Source: a virus
Lineage: Duplodnaviria > Heunggongvirae > Uroviricota > Caudoviricetes
Direction: 5' to 3' (one strand)
Virus record (IMG/VR): IMGVR_UViG_2875713109_000007
DNA: 14,449 nucleotides
Positions 1-7,726 of this stretch are shown one piece after another. The first letter of the stretch is position 1; each line of letters begins with the position of its first letter. Position numbers and translations under genes: made by a program. The notes beneath the pieces are model-generated. The model did not search any database and had not been told where the DNA came from. It saw only the letters and a list, made by a program, of their open reading frames with translations.

Positions 1-750
1 TCAGTCAATTGTTTTGTTTATTCCATCTGTGACGCCGATTATTTTCTCAAAATAATGAGATGGCGTGACACCATAATAATCTTTAAATGCACATATGAAA
101 TATGAAGTACTGTTATAGCCACATTTCTGGGCTACGACATTGATAGAATAAGAGTTTGAAGTTATGAGTTTTTTTGCATACCTCATCCTAGTATCTCTCA
201 ATATTTCAGTAAATGACGTTCCTTCATCCCTTAATCTTTTTTTTATTAAACTTTCACTCGTATAAATCAATTCCGCAATATCTTTTAAATGCCATTGCCG
301 CTCAATATTAAAACTGATTATTCCAGTAATTTTACAGGTAAATGTATTTATATTTGTTAGTATAAAAGAATTTACACTTTCGCGTTTTTTGAACATGGCA
401 AGTAAGGATATACATAGTCTTTCTTTTAACCAAAGGGAGTGTGAGTCTGCTATTTTAATCCCTTCAAACAGAGAAAAAACAAGCGATAATGGAGGTTCCT
501 CTTCAGCAATATAGCCATTCTTATCAAGAGTAAATTTGCCAGGCAGCTCATTATTCACGTCGATAAAAAAGGATAAACAAGTTTTCTTATCTATATCAAC
601 AATTCTTAGTTTAGAGGGGCATACTGGTAACTCCCTTCTAATTTTGTCGCTTACAATAAACAATGAATTTTTTTTGAACGAGATAACTCTCCTGTTTATA
701 ATTAAATCAAATGATTGACAGATGAAAACTACGGAGCAAACATAATCCAT
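1..750 (-). CDS. appY: AraC/XylS-family transcriptional activator, AppY-like, 249 aa
   Basis: Complete minus-strand ORF, ATG at 750-748 and TGA at 3-1. C-terminal AraC-type HTH region (…[29 protein letters not shown]). Length and N-terminus ([14 protein letters not shown]…) match my recollection of AppY; adjacent to tfaX/ybcY as in DLP12. Confidence 0.8.
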
Positions 751-1340
751 CTTGCACCTATCATAAAATTAAAACAAGTTGATAGCAGTCAAATAACAAC
801 CAATTAAATACACAATCATAATCAGGATGATGTGCATTTATATTTTTATACACAAAATTATAGTTTGCAAATTTTAATAAATTTCATTTAAGATTAAATT
901 ATTATATGTATATTGTTTTTTATTCTAACGTATTTCAAAGTTACATTTTTCAACGCTTACTATACTTTTTATTAACATAAACTCACTACAACGCACCTGA
1001 AACCTCTTGCTATATATATGTCAACCGTTTGAATTTAAAATAAAAAGAGTATCATTTTTACTTGCATTTCTTATCAAGTCACATTCAACAACAGTAAAAA
1101 AACATTATTAGAACCATTCAATTAACAAAAAAACCAACATCCAGCTTGCTTAATTTTTCTTTATTAAACGATATTGAAAATCAATTGATAAAATACATCT
1201 AAACAACCTTTTGGGGCGCAAAAGCATAACATCAAACAAATAACACACCGAAAAAACTCACAATTAATAACCTATGATATACATACTGTTTATTATGGTT
1301 GAATAAGCCACTCGATATCTGGTGCTACGGAAGTGTCCAC

Positions 1341-1450
1341 ACGGTTTAGCAGCACCCGATACTTTTTTCAGGCTTCCAGCAACGATCTTTCTTCCTCCGT
1401 TGCGATTTCCAGATCTACAGCATCCTGCAGTGGCGCAATATACTCACTGA
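1341..1450. repeat. Direct repeat copy 1 (tfa 3' region), about 88% identical to 4112-4221
   Basis: Hand alignment of 110 bp gives about 13 mismatches and no gaps; same orientation as copy 2. Confidence 0.8.
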
Positions 1451-1553
1451 ATTCCTGGATGTAGAACTGTGTGGTGACGGTCTTCCAGCTATTCGGCTCC
1501 TGCTGTATTGAAGCATACCAGGCTATTTCAATATCGCTATGCTGCGGCAGCAT
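1368..1553 (-). pseudogene. tfaX: Tail fiber assembly protein remnant, 61 aa, ended by an in-frame TGA
   Basis: ATG at 1553-1551 preceded by AAGGGG. The C-terminal part (…[23 protein letters not shown]) is homologous to the Tfa C-terminus encoded at 4064-4639. TGA at 1370-1368 replaces the TGG (Trp) of the paralog, and the frame continues [24 protein letters not shown] to a TAA near 1294-1292. Confidence 0.65.
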
Positions 1554-1609
1554 TTAACCCCTTGTAATTCATTGCCATAATTGATCTAATTCACAAATAA
1601 AACTATAAC

Positions 1610-2278
1610 ATGGTGAAATTAATGAAAAAAAACACAGATGATGGGGCTAAAATTTACACACCACTTACCCTAAAGCTTTATGACTGGTGGGTTTTGGGAG
1701 TATCAAATCGGCTTGCATGGGGATGTCCTACAAAGGAACACCTTCTTCCACACTTTCTGGAACATTTAGGTAACAACCATCTGGATATTGGTGTTGGAAC
1801 TGGGTTTTACCTTACTCACGTACCTGAGAGTAGTCTGATATCTTTAATGGATTTGAACGAAGCTAGCCTGAACGCGGCATCTACAAGGGCTGGGGAATCA
1901 AAAATTAAACATAAAATTAACCATGATGTTTTTGAACCTTATCCCGCGGCGTTACATGGTCAATTTGATTCCATTTCCATGTTTTACCTTCTTCACTGCC
2001 TGCCTGGAAATATATCTACAAAAAGCTGTGTAATACGCAATGCGGCGCAGGCCTTAACTGACGATGGAACTCTATACGGAGCCACAATTCTTGGCGATGG
2101 AGTTGTGCACAATAGCTTCGGTCAAAAACTGATGCGCATTTACAATCAGAAAGGCATCTTTTCAAACACAAAAGATTCCGAAGAAGGCTTAACACATATA
2201 CTCTCAGAGCATTTCGAGAATGTTAAAACCAAGGTTCAAGGTACTGTAGTAATGTTTTCCGCTTCAGGGAAAAAATAG
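1610..2278 (+). CDS. ybcY: Class I SAM-dependent methyltransferase, 222 aa
   Basis: ATG at 1610, TAG at 2276-2278. Glycine-rich SAM-binding motif I (LDIGVGTGF) followed by an acidic residue motif (LMDLNE). Position between tfaX and the tail module matches DLP12 ybcY as I recall it. Confidence 0.75.
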   Translation: MVKLMKKNTDDGAKIYTPLTLKLYDWWVLGVSNRLAWGCPTKEHLLPHFLEHLGNNHLDIGVGTGFYLTHVPESSLISLMDLNEASLNAASTRAGESKIKHKINHDVFEPYPAALHGQFDSISMFYLLHCLPGNISTKSCVIRNAAQALTDDGTLYGATILGDGVVHNSFGQKLMRIYNQKGIFSNTKDSEEGLTHILSEHFENVKTKVQGTVVMFSASGKK

Positions 2279-2285
2279 CATCCAA

Positions 2286-2324
2286 CCGCAGCACGTTCTT
2301 GCATAAGGCGTGTCTGCGGTTTTT
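2286..2324 (+). terminator. Rho-independent terminator downstream of ybcY
   Basis: Stem CCGCAGCACG (2286-2295) pairs with CGTG-T-CTGCGG (2309-2319), followed by TTTTT (2320-2324). Confidence 0.6.
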
Positions 2325-2643
2325 CAACTATTCAGATACATCACTCCCATCACATTCATTCCTCCGCATCATAGGCATATAGGCTATATCACCTTGATAT
2401 TTTTCTTCTTCAGATAAAAACTGTTATCTATGTATACTTTTAAACCCAATCCGTGTAGAGTCTCTGCATAAGATAGTTTGCAGTTGCCACTTCAGCTTGC
2501 GCCATAAACCGCCTGATTTTTGCTGCCACCTGTTAGCATTCCTGTATACCTGAAACGACAATGTTTATCTACGAACTTTAAGAACCCCCAGGATAAAAAT
2601 TGTCAACTATATCATATATAACACATTACTAATTCGAGGCTAT

Positions 2644-2757
2644 ATGAACAGCATACTGATAATCACTTCGCTCCTTATCATATTCAGCATTTTTAGTCAT
2701 GCGCTAATAAAATTAGGGATTGGCATATCCAATAACCCAGACAAAACCGATGTATAA
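2644..2757 (+). CDS. Hypothetical 37-aa hydrophobic (single-TM-like) small protein
   Basis: ATG at 2644 preceded by GAGG (2636-2639). Translation [37 protein letters not shown] is a hydrophobic stretch of about 23 residues with a polar tail; TAA at 2755-2757. Too short for the ORF track, so no homology support. Confidence 0.35.
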
Positions 2758-2825
2758 GTCAACATATCCTGAATCAGACATACAATATCGCAATGAAAAT
2801 CAATAATATTTTAAGGAATATCTTC

Positions 2826-3059
2826 ATGAAATCAAAAGACACCCTAAAGTGGTTCCCTGCGCAGCTTCCTGAAGTAAGAATTATCCTAGGGGATGCTGTA
2901 GTGGAAGTAGCAAAACAGGGAAGACCTATCAATACCAGAACATTGCTTGATTACATTGAAGGAAACATAAAGAAAAAATCATGGCTGGATAACAAAGAAT
3001 TATTACAAACAGCGATATCAGTTCTTAAAGACAACCAAAATTTAAATGGTAAAATGTAA
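2826..3059 (+). CDS. Small hypothetical protein, 77 aa, possibly YdfK/YnaE-family (tentative)
   Basis: ATG at 2826 with AAGGA SD (2813-2817) at 8-nt spacing; the track's upstream start at 2793 lacks an SD. Lies immediately upstream of the Pin invertase on the same strand, as ydfK does relative to pinQ and ynaE to pinR in my recollection. Family assignment is from context and length, not verified sequence identity. Confidence 0.5.
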   Translation: MKSKDTLKWFPAQLPEVRIILGDAVVEVAKQGRPINTRTLLDYIEGNIKKKSWLDNKELLQTAISVLKDNQNLNGKM

Positions 3060-3375
3060 TATAATAAACTTACTTTTTTATCATTTTTCCACTTTAACAA
3101 CATTTTGCTCCACTTTTCCACGACCAAACAACTTGAAATCTGGTTAAAATAACACGCAACACTATTCTTCTTCCTTGAGTCCGCCCGGAACTCGAAAAAC
3201 AAACCGAGTTAAAGCCATTTTTCACAAAATCGATTTTGGGTCTCACCAAAATTACGGGGTTGCATACGCATTCGTTTATTTTCGAACGTGTACATACAAA
3301 TATGCACAAAAATAATCATAATTATTTTCTGAGATGCATTATGATATGAACACCAATTTCGTATAGAGTCTCACT

Positions 3376-3966
3376 ATGTCTCAAATTTTTGCTTACTGTC
3401 GGATATCAACGCTGGATCAGACCACCGAAAATCAACGCCGGGAAATCGAAAGTGCAGGTTTTAAAATCAAACCTCAGCAAATAATCGAAGAACACATTAG
3501 CGGCTCAGCAGCAACCAGTGAGCGTCCTGGTTTTAACCGGTTGCTTGCTCGCCTGAAATGTGGTGATCAATTGATTGTGACAAAACTGGATCGCCTTGGT
3601 TGTAATGCAATGGATATCAGGAAAACAGTGGAACAACTGACCGAAACAGGTATCAGAGTGCATTGCTTAGCATTGGGGGGCATTGACCTGACCAGTCCAA
3701 CAGGAAAAATGATGATGCAAGTAATTTCAGCAGTCGCTGAATTTGAACGAGACCTTTTACTTGAACGCACTCATTCCGGGATAGTAAGAGCCCGCGGCGC
3801 AGGGAAACGTTTTGGTCGACCACCTGTGTTAAATGAAGAACAGAAACAGGCGGTATTCGAACGAATTAAGTCAGGTGTAAGTATAAGTGCCATTGCCCGG
3901 GAATTCAAAACCTCGCGGCAAACCATTTTAAGAGCCAAAGCAAAACTTCAGACACCTGACATATAA
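3376..3966 (+). CDS. pin: Pin-family serine DNA invertase (PinQ/PinR-like), 196 aa
   Basis: ATG at 3376, TAA at 3964-3966. N-terminal serine-recombinase catalytic domain (YCRISTLDQ with the catalytic Ser; [18 protein letters not shown]) and C-terminal HTH ([20 protein letters not shown]). Convergent with a tfa/tail-fiber remnant, as in Qin/Rac. Confidence 0.85.
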
Positions 3967-4063
3967 AAAATAATCTCGGTGTGAGATGCTTTACGTCTTC
4001 CAAGCCCCCTTCCTTGCCGTAAATGGAAAGATACATCTAATTATAGAATTTATATGTTTTACC

Positions 4064-4639
4064 CTACGGCAGTGCTGGCCATTCAATATCCTGTGCAGTT
4101 GACGTATCAACACGGTTCAGCAATACCCGATACTTTTTCCATGCTTCCAGCAACGAGATTTCTTCCTCCGTTGCAATTTCCAGATCTGCAGCATCCTGAA
4201 GCGGCGCAATATGCTCACTGGCTACCTGCATCAGGTTGTTTTTTGTTTCTTCCGCCTCCCGGATCCGGAACAGTTTTTCTGCTTCCGTATCCTTCACCCA
4301 GGCTGTGCCGTTCCACTTCTGAAACTCCCCTTCCGGCGATAACCAGGTAACATTTTTCGGTAACGGACCGAGTTCAGAAATAAATAACGCGTCGCCGGAA
4401 GCCACGTCATAAACCGTTTTACCCCGATGATCTTCAACGAGATGCCACGATGCCTCATCACTGTTGAAAACAGCCACAAAGCCAGCAGGAATATCTGGTG
4501 GTGCAATATCGGTACTGTTTGCTGGCAGACCTGTATGAGGCGGAATATATGCGTCACCTTCACCAATAAATTCATTAGTTCCGGCCAGCAGATTATAAAT
4601 TTTTATGGTCCGTGGTTGTTCACTCATTCTGAATGCCAT
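4064..4639 (-). CDS. tfa: Tail fiber assembly protein (Tfa), 191 aa
   Basis: ATG at 4639-4637 ([20 protein letters not shown]…), TAG at 4066-4064. Strongly resembles lambda/e14 Tfa as I recall it. Confidence 0.8.
4112..4221. repeat. Direct repeat copy 2 (tfa 3' region), paired with 1341-1450
   Basis: See copy 1. Confidence 0.8.
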
Positions 4640-4897
4640 TATGCAAGCCGCGATGTTTTTGACGGTGTTTTCCGCGTTACCAGCAGCGTTAACGGTGATG
4701 GTGTGTCCATGTGAACCAATCGCAACGGAGTGCGTATGAGCACCAATACCGACAGTATGCGCGTGTGCACCTGCAGATGCTGCTGTGCCGGACAGTGAAT
4801 GGCTATGATTACCATCTGTACTGGTATTCGCTAACCACCCCGTAGACATACCTACTGAGCCTTGTACACCCGTTGTTAACTTATCCATGGATTTCAT
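4640..4897 (-). pseudogene. Side tail fiber C-terminal tip fragment, fused in frame to tfa
   Basis: Encodes …[55 protein letters not shown], a His-box tail-fiber tip like the lambda Stf C-terminus. No stop before the tfa ATG. Possible own start at ATG 4897-4895 with GAGGTG SD. The 5' constant part of the fiber gene is absent; the N-terminal boundary is uncertain, and the track's 4942 start is a TTG. Confidence 0.55.
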
Positions 4898-5032
4898 AAC
4901 CCCACCTCGCAGACAAAGCGGGTGTAAATTGAGGGAATACAACGTATCGCAAAAAAGCAGAAACGTAACAGACTCGGAGTCAGTGAATAACTCAGGTATT
5001 GGGTTATCAGCTAATATCGAGACTCAAAAAAT

Positions 5033-5058
5033 GGAAAAACCCGCTCGACGGCGGGTTT
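5033..5058 (-). terminator. Putative rho-independent terminator, minus-strand orientation
   Basis: GC stem CCCGC (5040-5044) pairs with GCGGG (5051-5055), extended by A-T pairs. On the minus-strand RNA the stem is followed by UUUUUCC; on the plus strand only UUU follows. Confidence 0.45.
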
Positions 5059-5392
5059 AAGCTGTGTGACGAAGTAACCACTCTTAACAGCATAACCAAT
5101 TTTTTACGTACGTAAACCACAAAATGATATTTGCGAGAATGCTACCGAGTATTGAAAACACCACTACAAATACATAAGCAAATCTCAACAAATAACCAAC
5201 AAATAATTTCCAGTGTTATTTTTAGCCGATTTAAATTGAACCTTCAAATTACAGAGCACTTATAAATAACAGCCGTTAATATAAATTGGCTAATAGATTT
5301 ATTTTTATTCAGCCAAGATCCATGAATAGGATTCGATAGAAAAAAGTTCAGATAAAAATAGAGATCTACTTCACAAATCAAACGAGAAACCA

Positions 5393-5412
5393 AAACTTAC
5401 ATCTTGAAATAA
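5393..5412 (+). promoter_or_regulatory. OmpR-box-like motif upstream of the porin gene (tentative)
   Basis: ACTTACATCTTGAAAT resembles the ompC OmpR site TTTACATTTTGAAAC that I recall. It lies about 85 bp upstream of the nmpC ATG in an AT-rich leader. Confidence 0.25.
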
Positions 5413-5486
5413 TCACATTGATTAGATGAATATTTATCGCGCAGTGACATCATTTTTTAATAATAGTTCAAAAAAAAGGGCTCACG

Positions 5487-6569
5487 ATGAAAAAATTAAC
5501 AGTGGCAATTTCTGCTGTAGCTGCATCAGTACTGATGGCGATGTCTGCTCAGGCAGCTGAAATTTATAATAAAGACAGTAACAAGCTGGATCTATATGGG
5601 AAAGTTAATGCCAAGCACTACTTCTCCTCTAATGATGCAGATGATGGTGATACTACTTATGCCCGTCTTGGCTTCAAAGGTGAAACCCAAATCAACGATC
5701 AACTGACTGGTTTCGGTCAGTGGGAATATGAATTCAAAGGCAACCGCGCTGAATCTCAAGGCTCCTCCAAAGACAAAACCCGTCTTGCATTTGCAGGCCT
5801 GAAATTCGGGGACTACGGCTCAATCGATTACGGCCGTAACTACGGTGTAGCATATGACATCGGTGCGTGGACTGACGTTCTGCCAGAATTCGGTGGCGAT
5901 ACCTGGACCCAAACAGATGTGTTCATGACTGGTCGCACCACTGGTGTTGCAACTTATCGTAACAACGACTTCTTTGGTCTGGTTGATGGTCTGAACTTTG
6001 CTGCTCAGTATCAGGGTAAAAATGACCGCACTGACGTAACTGAAGCTAATGGTGATGGTTTCGGTTTCTCCACTACTTATGAGTATGAAGGATTCGGTGT
6101 AGGTGCAACCTATGCTAAATCTGACCGCACTAATAATCAGGTTATCTACGGTAACAACAGCCTGAATGCATCTGGTCAAAATGCTGAAGTATGGGCAGCT
6201 GGTCTGAAATATGATGCGAACAACATCTATCTGGCTACCACCTATTCTGAAACCCAGAACATGACTGTTTTTGGTAATAACCATATTGCCAACAAAGCAC
6301 AAAACTTCGAAGTAGTTGCACAATATCAGTTCGACTTCGGTCTGCGTCCGTCCGTTGCTTACCTGCAATCTAAAGGAAAAGACTTGGGTGCGTGGGGTGA
6401 TCAGGACCTGGTTGAATATATTGATGTAGGTGCAACCTATTACTTCAACAAAAATATGTCCACTTTTGTTGATTACAAAATCAACCTGATTGATAAGAGC
6501 GATTTCACGAAAGCATCTGGCGTTGCTACCGATGATATCGTTGCTGTAGGTATGGTTTACCAGTTCTAA
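5487..6569 (+). CDS. nmpC: Outer membrane general porin (OmpC/OmpF/NmpC family), 360 aa, intact
   Basis: ATG at 5487 with AAGGG SD; signal peptide [29 protein letters not shown]; porin hallmarks and C-terminal …VGMVYQF; TAA at 6567-6569. Uninterrupted, with no IS sequence. Confidence 0.9.
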
Positions 6570-6584
6570 TTTGATTACTAAAAG

Positions 6585-6640
6585 ATATGTTGCGGGAGGC
6601 TTTGCCTCCCCAACATATAAGTGGCTCCCTCAAGCCACTT
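6585..6640. repeat. Two adjacent stem-loops just downstream of the porin gene
   Basis: Hairpin 1: ATATGTTGCGGGAGGC-TTT-GCCTCCCCAACATAT (6585-6618). Hairpin 2: AAGTGGCT-CCCTCA-AGCCACTT (6619-6640). No U-run follows either. Confidence 0.5.
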
Positions 6641-6700
6641 CCTTTAGGAGCACAACCTTGCTTCTAACTATATAAACCTTCTGTTATATATTACCCTTTA

Positions 6701-6730
6701 TTTTTGGGGGCGTTGCAACGCCCCATTTTT
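6701..6730 (+). terminator. Rho-independent terminator for nmpC
   Basis: Perfect palindrome GGGGCGTTG/CAACGCCCC (6706-6724) followed by ATTTTT (6725-6730). On the minus strand the stem is flanked by A-runs, so it is plus-oriented. Confidence 0.65.
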
Positions 6731-6757
6731 AATAATTTTTAGTAAACAATTGGCATA

Positions 6758-7141
6758 TTAATTAGAGTTATTAACAACGATATCCATCTCTAACCGGATA
6801 TCTAATGCCATTAACATCCCTTCAATTATGCCCTCAGCCTTCTGTAACCTTTTCCCGATATAACCATCAGAGCAGCAATGCTTACCTGCCAGTGACATGA
6901 ATGTCATACCGACTACATAATAATCTACTAATAAATCGTGCAAATCGCTGTTGTTCTTTTTCAGACGGGCCATGCACCCGCAAATAATCATCGCGTCATC
7001 GTCACAACATTGCGGGCGAGATTTTACTTTTGAAGTAATTAATCCCTTAAAACCGGCGGCAATGGACGACCAGGTCACATCTTCATGATTATTAGCCGCC
7101 CACGCTCCCCAACGCTCAAGAACCATCTGAATATCACGCAT
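6758..7141 (-). CDS. quuD: Lambdoid late-gene antiterminator Q homolog, 127 aa
   Basis: ATG at 7141-7139 ([18 protein letters not shown]…) with GGAG SD; the track's upstream start at 7156 is a TTG. TAA at 6760-6758. Cys-rich region [16 protein letters not shown]. Matches my recollection of DLP12 QuuD. Confidence 0.8.
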
Positions 7142-7226
7142 CAACTTACTCCACAAAAATCAGACCAGAACGCCAATTACAAGCAAAAATCAACAAAACA
7201 GTATTAGTTGATTGTTATCTCTGACT

Positions 7227-7349
7227 TCATACTCCTGCTCCTGTCAGGGTTTTGGCGTAATTCTTCAGTATTCGGTAATCGGTCAAAACAGAACCGGGGA
7301 AACGATATAAGCGCAGATGCCCCCAGCGGTGGCGAAGAAGTTCTGCCAT
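7227..7349 (-). CDS. Small basic hypothetical ORF, 40 aa, in the position of ylcG (tentative)
   Basis: ATG at 7349-7347, 14 nt after the rusA stop; translation MAELLRHRWGHLRLYRFPGSVLTDYRILKNYAKTLTGAGV; TGA at 7229-7227. No clear SD. Supported only by position between rusA and the Q gene. Confidence 0.25.
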   Translation of the reverse strand: MAELLRHRWGHLRLYRFPGSVLTDYRILKNYAKTLTGAGV

Positions 7350-7363
7350 ATAAAACTCAAACA

Positions 7364-7726
7364 TCATTCATTCCCCATTTCGGTGATGGTCAGTTCCAGC
7401 CTCCCACCTTTGGTAACAGGCATCTTCACAACGCGGTAATCAACGACCTGAGCATCATCCAGCCAGAAACCTGCTTTGGTGAGTGCGTCAAAAGCGGCTT
7501 TTTGCAGATTATCCAGGTCACGGCGACGGCGATCCGGCATGTGGCACTCAATGCGGATTTTCACAGGCATAGCCAGGCCGATATCCAGCATTGCGTTTTT
7601 AATGATTCGGGCGACGTTATCGCGGTATGCCTGCCCCTCTGCACTGACGTGCGTGCGCCCGCGATTATGGCGGTAATAGCGATTATTGCTCGGAGGCCAG
7701 GGTAATGTGATACTGTAGGTATTCAC
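7364..7726 (-). CDS. rusA: Holliday junction resolvase RusA, 120 aa
   Basis: GTG start at 7726-7724 with [27 protein letters not shown]… matches RusA as I recall it; TGA at 7366-7364. Confidence 0.9.

Follow-up and report, generated by a model that had tools for sequence, protein, structure and literature searches.

In phage λ and in the Escherichia coli prophages that carry stfR-tfaR, the tail fiber and its assembly chaperone are made as two proteins. Tfa-type chaperones have a variable, fiber-binding N-terminal domain and a conserved helical C-terminal domain, an architecture that resembles the intramolecular chaperones of T5, K1F and GA-1 (PMC9608196). In the L-shaped fiber protein pb1 of T5, the K1F endosialidase and GA-1 gp12, client and C-terminal chaperone lie in one polypeptide; these arrangements are conserved and native, and are described as self-cleaving. 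For the tip of the T4 fiber protein gp37, which has gp38 as its chaperone, a solved structure is available (PDB 2XGF).

We analyzed a 14,449-nucleotide stretch of DNA (IMG/VR virus record IMGVR_UViG_2875713109_000007; hereafter, the window), in which a fiber-derived sequence and tfa are read as one. The open reading frame (ORF) concerned is a three-part chimera, consisting of the start of a holin gene, a piece of a fiber gene and a whole chaperone gene. It shares with λ stf-tfa and E. coli stfR-tfaR near-identical junction DNA, the His-x-His C-terminal region and the tfa start, but unlike these it is not divided into two proteins, and it keeps 72 Stf-only residues, compared with 1132 in the StfR of strain S10. 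Its Stf fragment resembles T4 gp37 at chain residues 174–235 of 2XGF, but amounts to approximately 30% of the solved tip, and folding as a trimeric needle cannot be assumed. With the T5, K1F and GA-1 proteins, the chimera has in common that a client and a C-terminal chaperone are present in one polypeptide; however, it is a private sequence with a truncated client and no fused relative, and a PDB search with the chimera gave no match to intramolecular chaperone domains of the T5/K1F type. The 91-amino acid (aa) EssD′-′Stf proteins of E. coli PSS-07 and its relatives (BEB68408.1, SQK30872.1 and others) have the same essD start, GGGTGT junction and flanks as the window, but in this type of remnant 17 nucleotides (nt) that the window lacks are kept, so that the 91-aa ORF reaches its stop codon and Tfa is made as a separate protein. 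Other “X::tfa” chimeras were found in E. coli assemblies (a 443-aa Stf::Tfa in P0016, Nu1::Tfa, ClpP::Tfa and Lom::Tfa). Like the ORF in the window, they are singletons in which a deletion joins a phage gene in frame to tfa, but their partners and junctions differ, and none has a His-box tip or an Ala-Cys-Ile (ACI) linker.

The window is a DLP12-type defective prophage

The window contains, in order, appY, a tfaX fragment, a methyltransferase gene, ynaM, ydfK, pin, tfa, an nmpC-like porin gene, quuD, rusA, ybcM, ybcL, ybcK, ren and intD, and is a DLP12-type defective lambdoid prophage at argU of E. coli. No mismatch to E. coli PSS-07 was found over positions 1–12857 and 12852–13999, and the exceptions to this identity were two deletions. 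One is the 17-nt loss at the stf/tfa junction described below. The second, also private to the window, is a deletion of approximately 1.79 kb relative to PSS-07 at 12857/12858, with a 2-nt microhomology (CA). The lost segment runs from the end of a replication-P fragment through gam, a bet fragment, a DUF1382 gene, a hypothetical gene and a TraR/DksA gene into a DUF4222 gene, and the deletion junction was found neither in any complete E. coli genome nor in the related contigs.

An additional scar is shared with other strains. A 437-nt deletion, in which ninE is lost, connects ybcN with ybcO at a 4-nt overlap, generating a 137-aa chimeric ORF at 7777–8190 on the minus strand, with the junction at 7885–7888. 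This ybcN′-′ybcO scar is common to PSS-07 and most of the related contigs, and is not found in L010, L015 or S10. The related contigs vary in further deletions around the replication genes. Both the ybcN′-′ybcO deletion and the deletion at 12857 fit ongoing decay of the prophage.

Structure of the chimeric ORF

Translation of 4064–4942 on the minus strand showed that 4897 to 4064 is a single ORF of 277 codons with no stop codon at the stf/tfa junction; it starts with the ATG at 4897 and ends with ...EWPALP*. Based on this translation and on Pfam, the product consists of EssD residues 1–11, a C-terminal fragment of Stf contributing 72 further residues, an Ala-Cys-Ile linker and Tfa residues 1–191. 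In the alignment, the essD-derived 5′ end spans 32 nt (4866–4897, minus strand) and includes two in-frame Met codons, M1 and M4. It is followed by the stf-derived fragment (4650–4871, minus strand), which is identical to S10 stfR and comprises 74 codons, including the Gly-Val pair shared with essD, and the His-x-His repeats. A remnant of the last stf codons, GGCTTGCATA, occupies 4640–4649 on the same strand; as judged from sequence comparison, it once encoded (R)LA-stop and is now read out of frame within Ala-Cys-Ile. The complete 191-aa tfa then runs from 4639 to 4064. In the other frame, the bases before tfa read A TCG CGG CTT GCA TAA TG, that is, S-R-L-A-stop, with TAATG lying over the tfa ATG at 4639–4637. 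Therefore tfa is not a separate ORF at the fiber stop: the stf stop is out of frame and is read through.

A 17-nt deletion at the stf/tfa junction

In PSS-07, in S10 stfR-tfa and in λ, the 17-nt sequence ATTTAACTATATTGTGA is situated between ...AACATCGC and GGCTTGCATAATG..., and it is absent from the window. Pairwise BLAST placed the gap between 4649 and 4650, and this placement is unique because the ends of the deletion have no microhomology. The loss runs from the third base of an Ala codon through the codons for F-N-Y-I-V to the first base of an Arg codon. The DNA encoding λ Stf (orf-314) reads ...AACATTGCATTTAACTATATTGTGAGGCTTGCATAATGGC before tfa, and in λ, in the intact E. coli prophage and in every relative examined, Stf ends with ...NIAFNYIVRLA* and a TAATG overlap onto tfa. 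In the chimera, this conserved fiber C-terminus is replaced by ...NIA-ACI-Tfa. Within the 12.9-kb alignment to PSS-07, which is 100% identical elsewhere, the gap is the one discrete difference, and its detection is not a matter of chance.

These features of the junction agree with the original prediction, which had been made from the sequence of the window. It had noted that the tail-fiber end reads into tfa without a stop, as the 277-codon translation confirmed, and that the alternative frame carries SRLA-TAA with TAATG overlapping the tfa ATG, as is seen at 4639–4637. It had further proposed a frame-shifting deletion of about 17 nt that took out FNYIV, based on the end of λ Stf and its overlap with tfa. 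This description of λ was correct according to the λ orf-314/tfa sequence; alignment to the λ stf-tfa junction revealed the gap, and the λ, PSS-07 and S10 alignments together gave a loss of exactly 17 nt.

The deletion also altered the DNA in front of tfa, where the GAGG located 8 nt upstream of the tfa ATG was trimmed to GCGG. As judged from the motif, independent initiation of Tfa would probably be weakened by this change.

The start of the ORF is borrowed from the holin gene essD

A stretch of 631 nt upstream of and into the ORF matched essD loci in 2,355 E. coli genomes, and the match ended at 4866. The region 5′ of the ATG was identical to that before the annotated essD in strain 8479. 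In a three-way alignment, the window followed essD through ATGAAATCCATGGATAAGTTAACAACGGGTGT, and from GGGTGT onwards it followed stf. Homology to S10 stf extended to 4871 and homology to essD to 4866, and the GGGTGT at 4866–4871 on the minus strand is a 6-bp microhomology at the essD/stf deletion junction. Strain S10 has an essentially complete prophage at the same site, in which the essD ATG is 25,029 nt from the stf breakpoint and a distance of 25,003 bp (25,029 minus 26) separates the two GGGTGT sites. Between essD and the stf breakpoint, S10 carries rrrD, rzpD, iss, the terminase, head and tail genes, J and lom. A rearrangement mediated by Pin was considered for this 5′ junction and rejected, since no convincing inverted-repeat crossover sites for Pin were found within 1–5600 and a collinear deletion relative to S10 accounts fully for the junction.

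S10 EssD belongs to the P21 holin S family (Pfam, PF04971). The chimera retains the translational features of a P21-type holin, namely, the MKSM start, the two in-frame Met codons and the native ribosome-binding site. The two Met starts of S21 yield the holin and antiholin forms. In the Pfam comparison the chimera had no match to PF04971; 11 residues of the holin are kept, and its transmembrane segments are absent. The Shine-Dalgarno sequence GAGGTGGGG (4900–4908, minus strand) is located 2 nt 5′ of the ATG and matches that of essD loci. Since the essD match runs through the ATG and the first 11 codons, what had appeared to be an own start of the fusion, GAGGTGGGGTT-ATG, is the ribosome-binding site and start of the holin gene. 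The signal is thus foreign to stf, and consists of the Shine-Dalgarno sequence, the ATG and the first 11 codons of essD.

Distribution of the unfused parent allele and of the fused junction

The unfused 91-aa EssD′-′Stf ORF, which ends with ...NIAFNYIVRLA, was found in a 15-billion-protein collection as a cluster of 123 on 23 contigs assigned by name to E. coli and Shigella sonnei. At least 24 contigs were seen to encode it, and in all 10 of those shown a separate 191-aa Tfa begins at its stop. All 10 related contigs had the intact 43-nt junction and none had the fused one. Strain Z0117EC0133 was considered as a second carrier and rejected, because its locus is built differently: it contains IS5 and a macro-domain gene, and both junctions are missing.

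The fused junction was then sought more widely. When 5,426 complete E. coli genomes were searched with a 101-nt junction probe, none of the matches was ungapped; they spanned 118 nt and thus included the 17 nt, and in this search approximately 3,700 E. coli genomes carried the 17 nt and two separate ORFs. The fused junction was likewise absent from phages, with the 17 nt present in 35 phage records, including λ-like ones, and from plasmids, where phage-plasmid records carried the 17 nt. The exact 26-nt junction AAAAACATCGCGGCTTGCATAATGGC had no match in GTDB species-representative genomes, IMG/VR or metagenome contigs. At the protein level, the fusion was not found among 15 billion proteins with any of four start choices, and among 5.8 billion protein clusters no homologue covered more than 74% of it and none combined a His-box tip with Tfa at the junction seen in the window.

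These data bear on the possibility, raised in the original prediction as one that would refute it, that a fused stf-tfa is the native state of this lineage. The gene would then be comparable with fibers that have a built-in C-terminal chaperone. Such an organization would account for the open reading frame itself, and Tfa-type chaperones do resemble the intramolecular ones of T5 and K1F (PMC9608196). However, the 17 nt and two ORFs were present in 10 of 10 lineage contigs, in the E. coli genomes and phage records counted above and in plasmid prophages, the protein clusters yielded no equivalent, and no collection searched contained a native fusion. We consider this explanation to be extremely improbable.

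The identity of the window to PSS-07 apart from the deletions implies that the 17-nt loss is either private and very recent or an artifact of assembly. Accordingly, the source is a very close relative of PSS-07 in which two private deletions have occurred, or else artifacts are present in the sequence. If the gap had been introduced during assembly, consensus calling or editing of the sequence, the strain would carry the unfused 91-aa ORF followed by tfa. Several observations point in this direction: the 17-nt loss is seen in one sequence that has no mismatch to PSS-07 over 14 kb apart from the two deletions, the junction is unique among all collections searched, and the deletion is blunt, whereas a lack of microhomology is less typical of spontaneous slippage deletions. 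The first and the last of these count against decay of the prophage as the origin of the gap. Nevertheless, a clean loss of 17 nt from sequence that is neither repetitive nor homopolymeric would be an unusual sequencing error. Moreover, the second private deletion of approximately 1.79 kb, with its 2-nt microhomology, suggests a distinct sister isolate in which real further decay has occurred, and the related contigs carry several different deletions in the same prophage. For these reasons we regard an assembly artifact as possible but unlikely, and we treat the ORF as a pseudogene fusion of an ordinary kind, private to this sequence and resulting from prophage decay.

Fiber-tip and chaperone portions of the chimera

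The Stf-derived part corresponds to chimera residues 12–83. In the PDB search, residues 23–84 matched T4 gp37 at chain residues 174–235 (of 242) of 2XGF, with an E-value of 2.9e-18, and the intact S10 StfR C-terminus aligned to chain residues 26–242, approximately 217 residues, with an E-value of 5.7e-86; domain coverage is given here in 2XGF chain numbering. S10 StfR shares the gp37 C-terminal residues NTVKNIAFNYIVRLA. The His-x-His repeats kept in the chimera are NHSHS, AHAHT, AHTHS and SHGHT. The N-terminal attachment domain (PF08400), the Gp34_trimer shaft and the Collar were detected by Pfam in the 1132-aa S10 StfR, and none of them was detected in the chimera. The complete gp37-like tip region is therefore not present: approximately its last 30% remains, and the final 8 residues are lost. 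The description of this portion as a tail-fiber tip, given in the original prediction, holds in that the sequence is derived from a fiber tip, but the 2XGF alignments show that it is partial, comprising about the last 72 residues and lacking the conserved C-terminus.

In contrast to the fiber fragment, the Tfa part is intact. Its 191 aa were identical to a tail fiber assembly protein encoded on at least 1000 contigs. Chimera residues 158–277 matched the Pfam family Caudo_TAP (PF02413) with 145.1 bits (cut-off, 22.1), and in the PDB search the Tfa C-terminus matched Mu Tfa U (5YVQ).

Two further observations were made on tfa-related sequences. The sole Rfam match, to the candidate E. coli sRNA IS009 (221 bits; 4098–4296, minus strand), lies wholly within the tfa coding sequence, in its 3′ part. 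The IS009 model may represent tfa-derived sequence, such as that of the tfaX pseudogene, rather than an RNA gene, and the match is irrelevant to the fusion. In addition, positions 1307–1460 and 4078–4231 form a direct repeat with 82% identity. The left copy is the tfaX pseudogene fragment adjoining appY, and this fragment is a second, older tfa remnant in the same prophage.

Signals for expression

Upstream of the ATG, as far as the porin gene, a consensus scan revealed no σ70-like promoter on the minus strand, and the route of transcription was therefore taken from the literature on K-12, in which the S-R-Rz operon of DLP12 is reported to be under the control of a Q-type antiterminator, RpoE and Hha (PMC7918800). 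In the window, quuD (6758–7141, minus strand) encodes an intact Q-type antiterminator, according to the annotation of the identical DNA in PSS-07 (WP_001204791.1). By analogy with K-12, the chimera, if transcribed at all, is likely to be under the control of quuD. A pattern scan detected a G+C-rich hairpin followed by a T-run (AAACCCGCCGTCGAGCGGGTTT TTCCATTTTT; 5037–5058, minus strand) in the essD leader, approximately 140 nt upstream of the ATG. This element is a candidate late-operon terminator, possibly a tR′-like target of the Q protein. If the chimera is transcribed, it would be from the late transcript of the prophage that normally serves essD, and translation would begin at the holin start.

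Proposed history of the locus and possible function

Taken together, the alignments make it probable, in our judgment, that the ORF is a scar left as a DLP12-type defective prophage decayed through successive deletions. The first step, which can be followed directly in the comparison with S10, was a deletion of approximately 25.0 kb between the two GGGTGT sequences, removing the region from essD codon 12 to about stf codon 1052 and with it what remained of the lysis cassette. The product was a 91-codon EssD′-′Stf ORF with the ribosome-binding site and start of the holin, followed by an intact, separate tfa with the TAATG overlap, and it is this parent allele that circulates in a small E. coli and Shigella lineage. 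The second step is the blunt 17-nt deletion. The window, and the window only, carries it in its sequence, and if it took place in the bacterium, the frame would from then on have passed the stf stop via Ala-Cys-Ile into tfa. No function would be expected of the product, since it lacks both the transmembrane segment of the holin and the conserved fiber C-terminus and keeps less than a third of the fiber tip, and all of the tail genes are gone. It would be a pseudogene-type fusion in which Tfa is tethered to a client fragment that presumably cannot fold.

We also considered that the chimera might be a functional new protein, acting as a decoy that poisons trimerization of Stf/gp37-type fibers or as a self-chaperoned tip module. 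The ORF does lie behind an intact Q gene and holin translation signals, the strand that it keeps is nearly the same as the needle strand at the C-terminus of T4 gp37, and its Tfa part is whole. However, a private allele without any sign of spread or selection, encoding a fragment that lacks most of the tip domain as well as the conserved C-terminus, is not what such a role would lead one to expect, and singleton X::tfa fusions, whose N-terminal partners are unrelated (terminase, ClpP, Lom and others), form the pattern expected of accidents. A functional protein is accordingly very improbable. The same low credence applies to a more specific scenario, in which the chimera, and perhaps its 91-aa parent, would be made from the holin translation signals once the cryptic late operon is activated, either by the Q protein of a superinfecting lambdoid phage or by QuuD, and the needle strand tethered to Tfa would disturb fiber trimerization of the incoming phage as an accidental dominant-negative decoy. 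A chimera that is expressed and hampers incoming phages in assembling their fibers would rank as a small curiosity of phage defense, and nothing in the present analysis supports this.

As the scar of successive deletions, the locus carries little biological weight, but it offers a reconstructed case of the shrinkage of a cryptic prophage, first by a 25-kb microhomology deletion and then by a 17-nt frameshifting deletion. It illustrates that successive deletions can by chance build a multi-part ORF and leave it with genuine expression signals, in this case those of a holin start preceded by an intact Q gene. It is also a warning for annotation: a strong ribosome-binding site, 277 codons and a Pfam domain look gene-like, yet the ORF is a private pseudogene fusion.

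Other features of the prophage

A gene encoding a Pin-type serine invertase of 196 aa, with Resolvase and HTH_7 domains, is located at 3376–3966 on the plus strand and is convergent with tfa. On the other side of the chimera, an intact gene for a 360-aa porin of the NmpC/Lc type (5487–6569, plus strand; annotated as “ompC” by PGAP) lies antisense between quuD and the essD leader. In K-12, the copy of the nmpC-type porin gene is interrupted by IS5. The emrE gene (approximately 12009–12342, minus strand) carries a frameshift according to the annotation of PSS-07, whose sequence is identical here, and is split into ORFs of 71 aa and 51 aa in the related contigs.

The assembly L012 (GCA_050474305.1) differs from the window in its surroundings. 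At positions 12300–20276 it contains the essD′-′stf/tfa/pin/ydfK/ynaM block, followed by a Usp gene, a porin gene and a pyruvate:ferredoxin oxidoreductase-type gene, and not by the methyltransferase gene and appY. We take this flank to resemble the site of the Rac prophage. The arrangement in L012 suggests recombination between two prophage sites.
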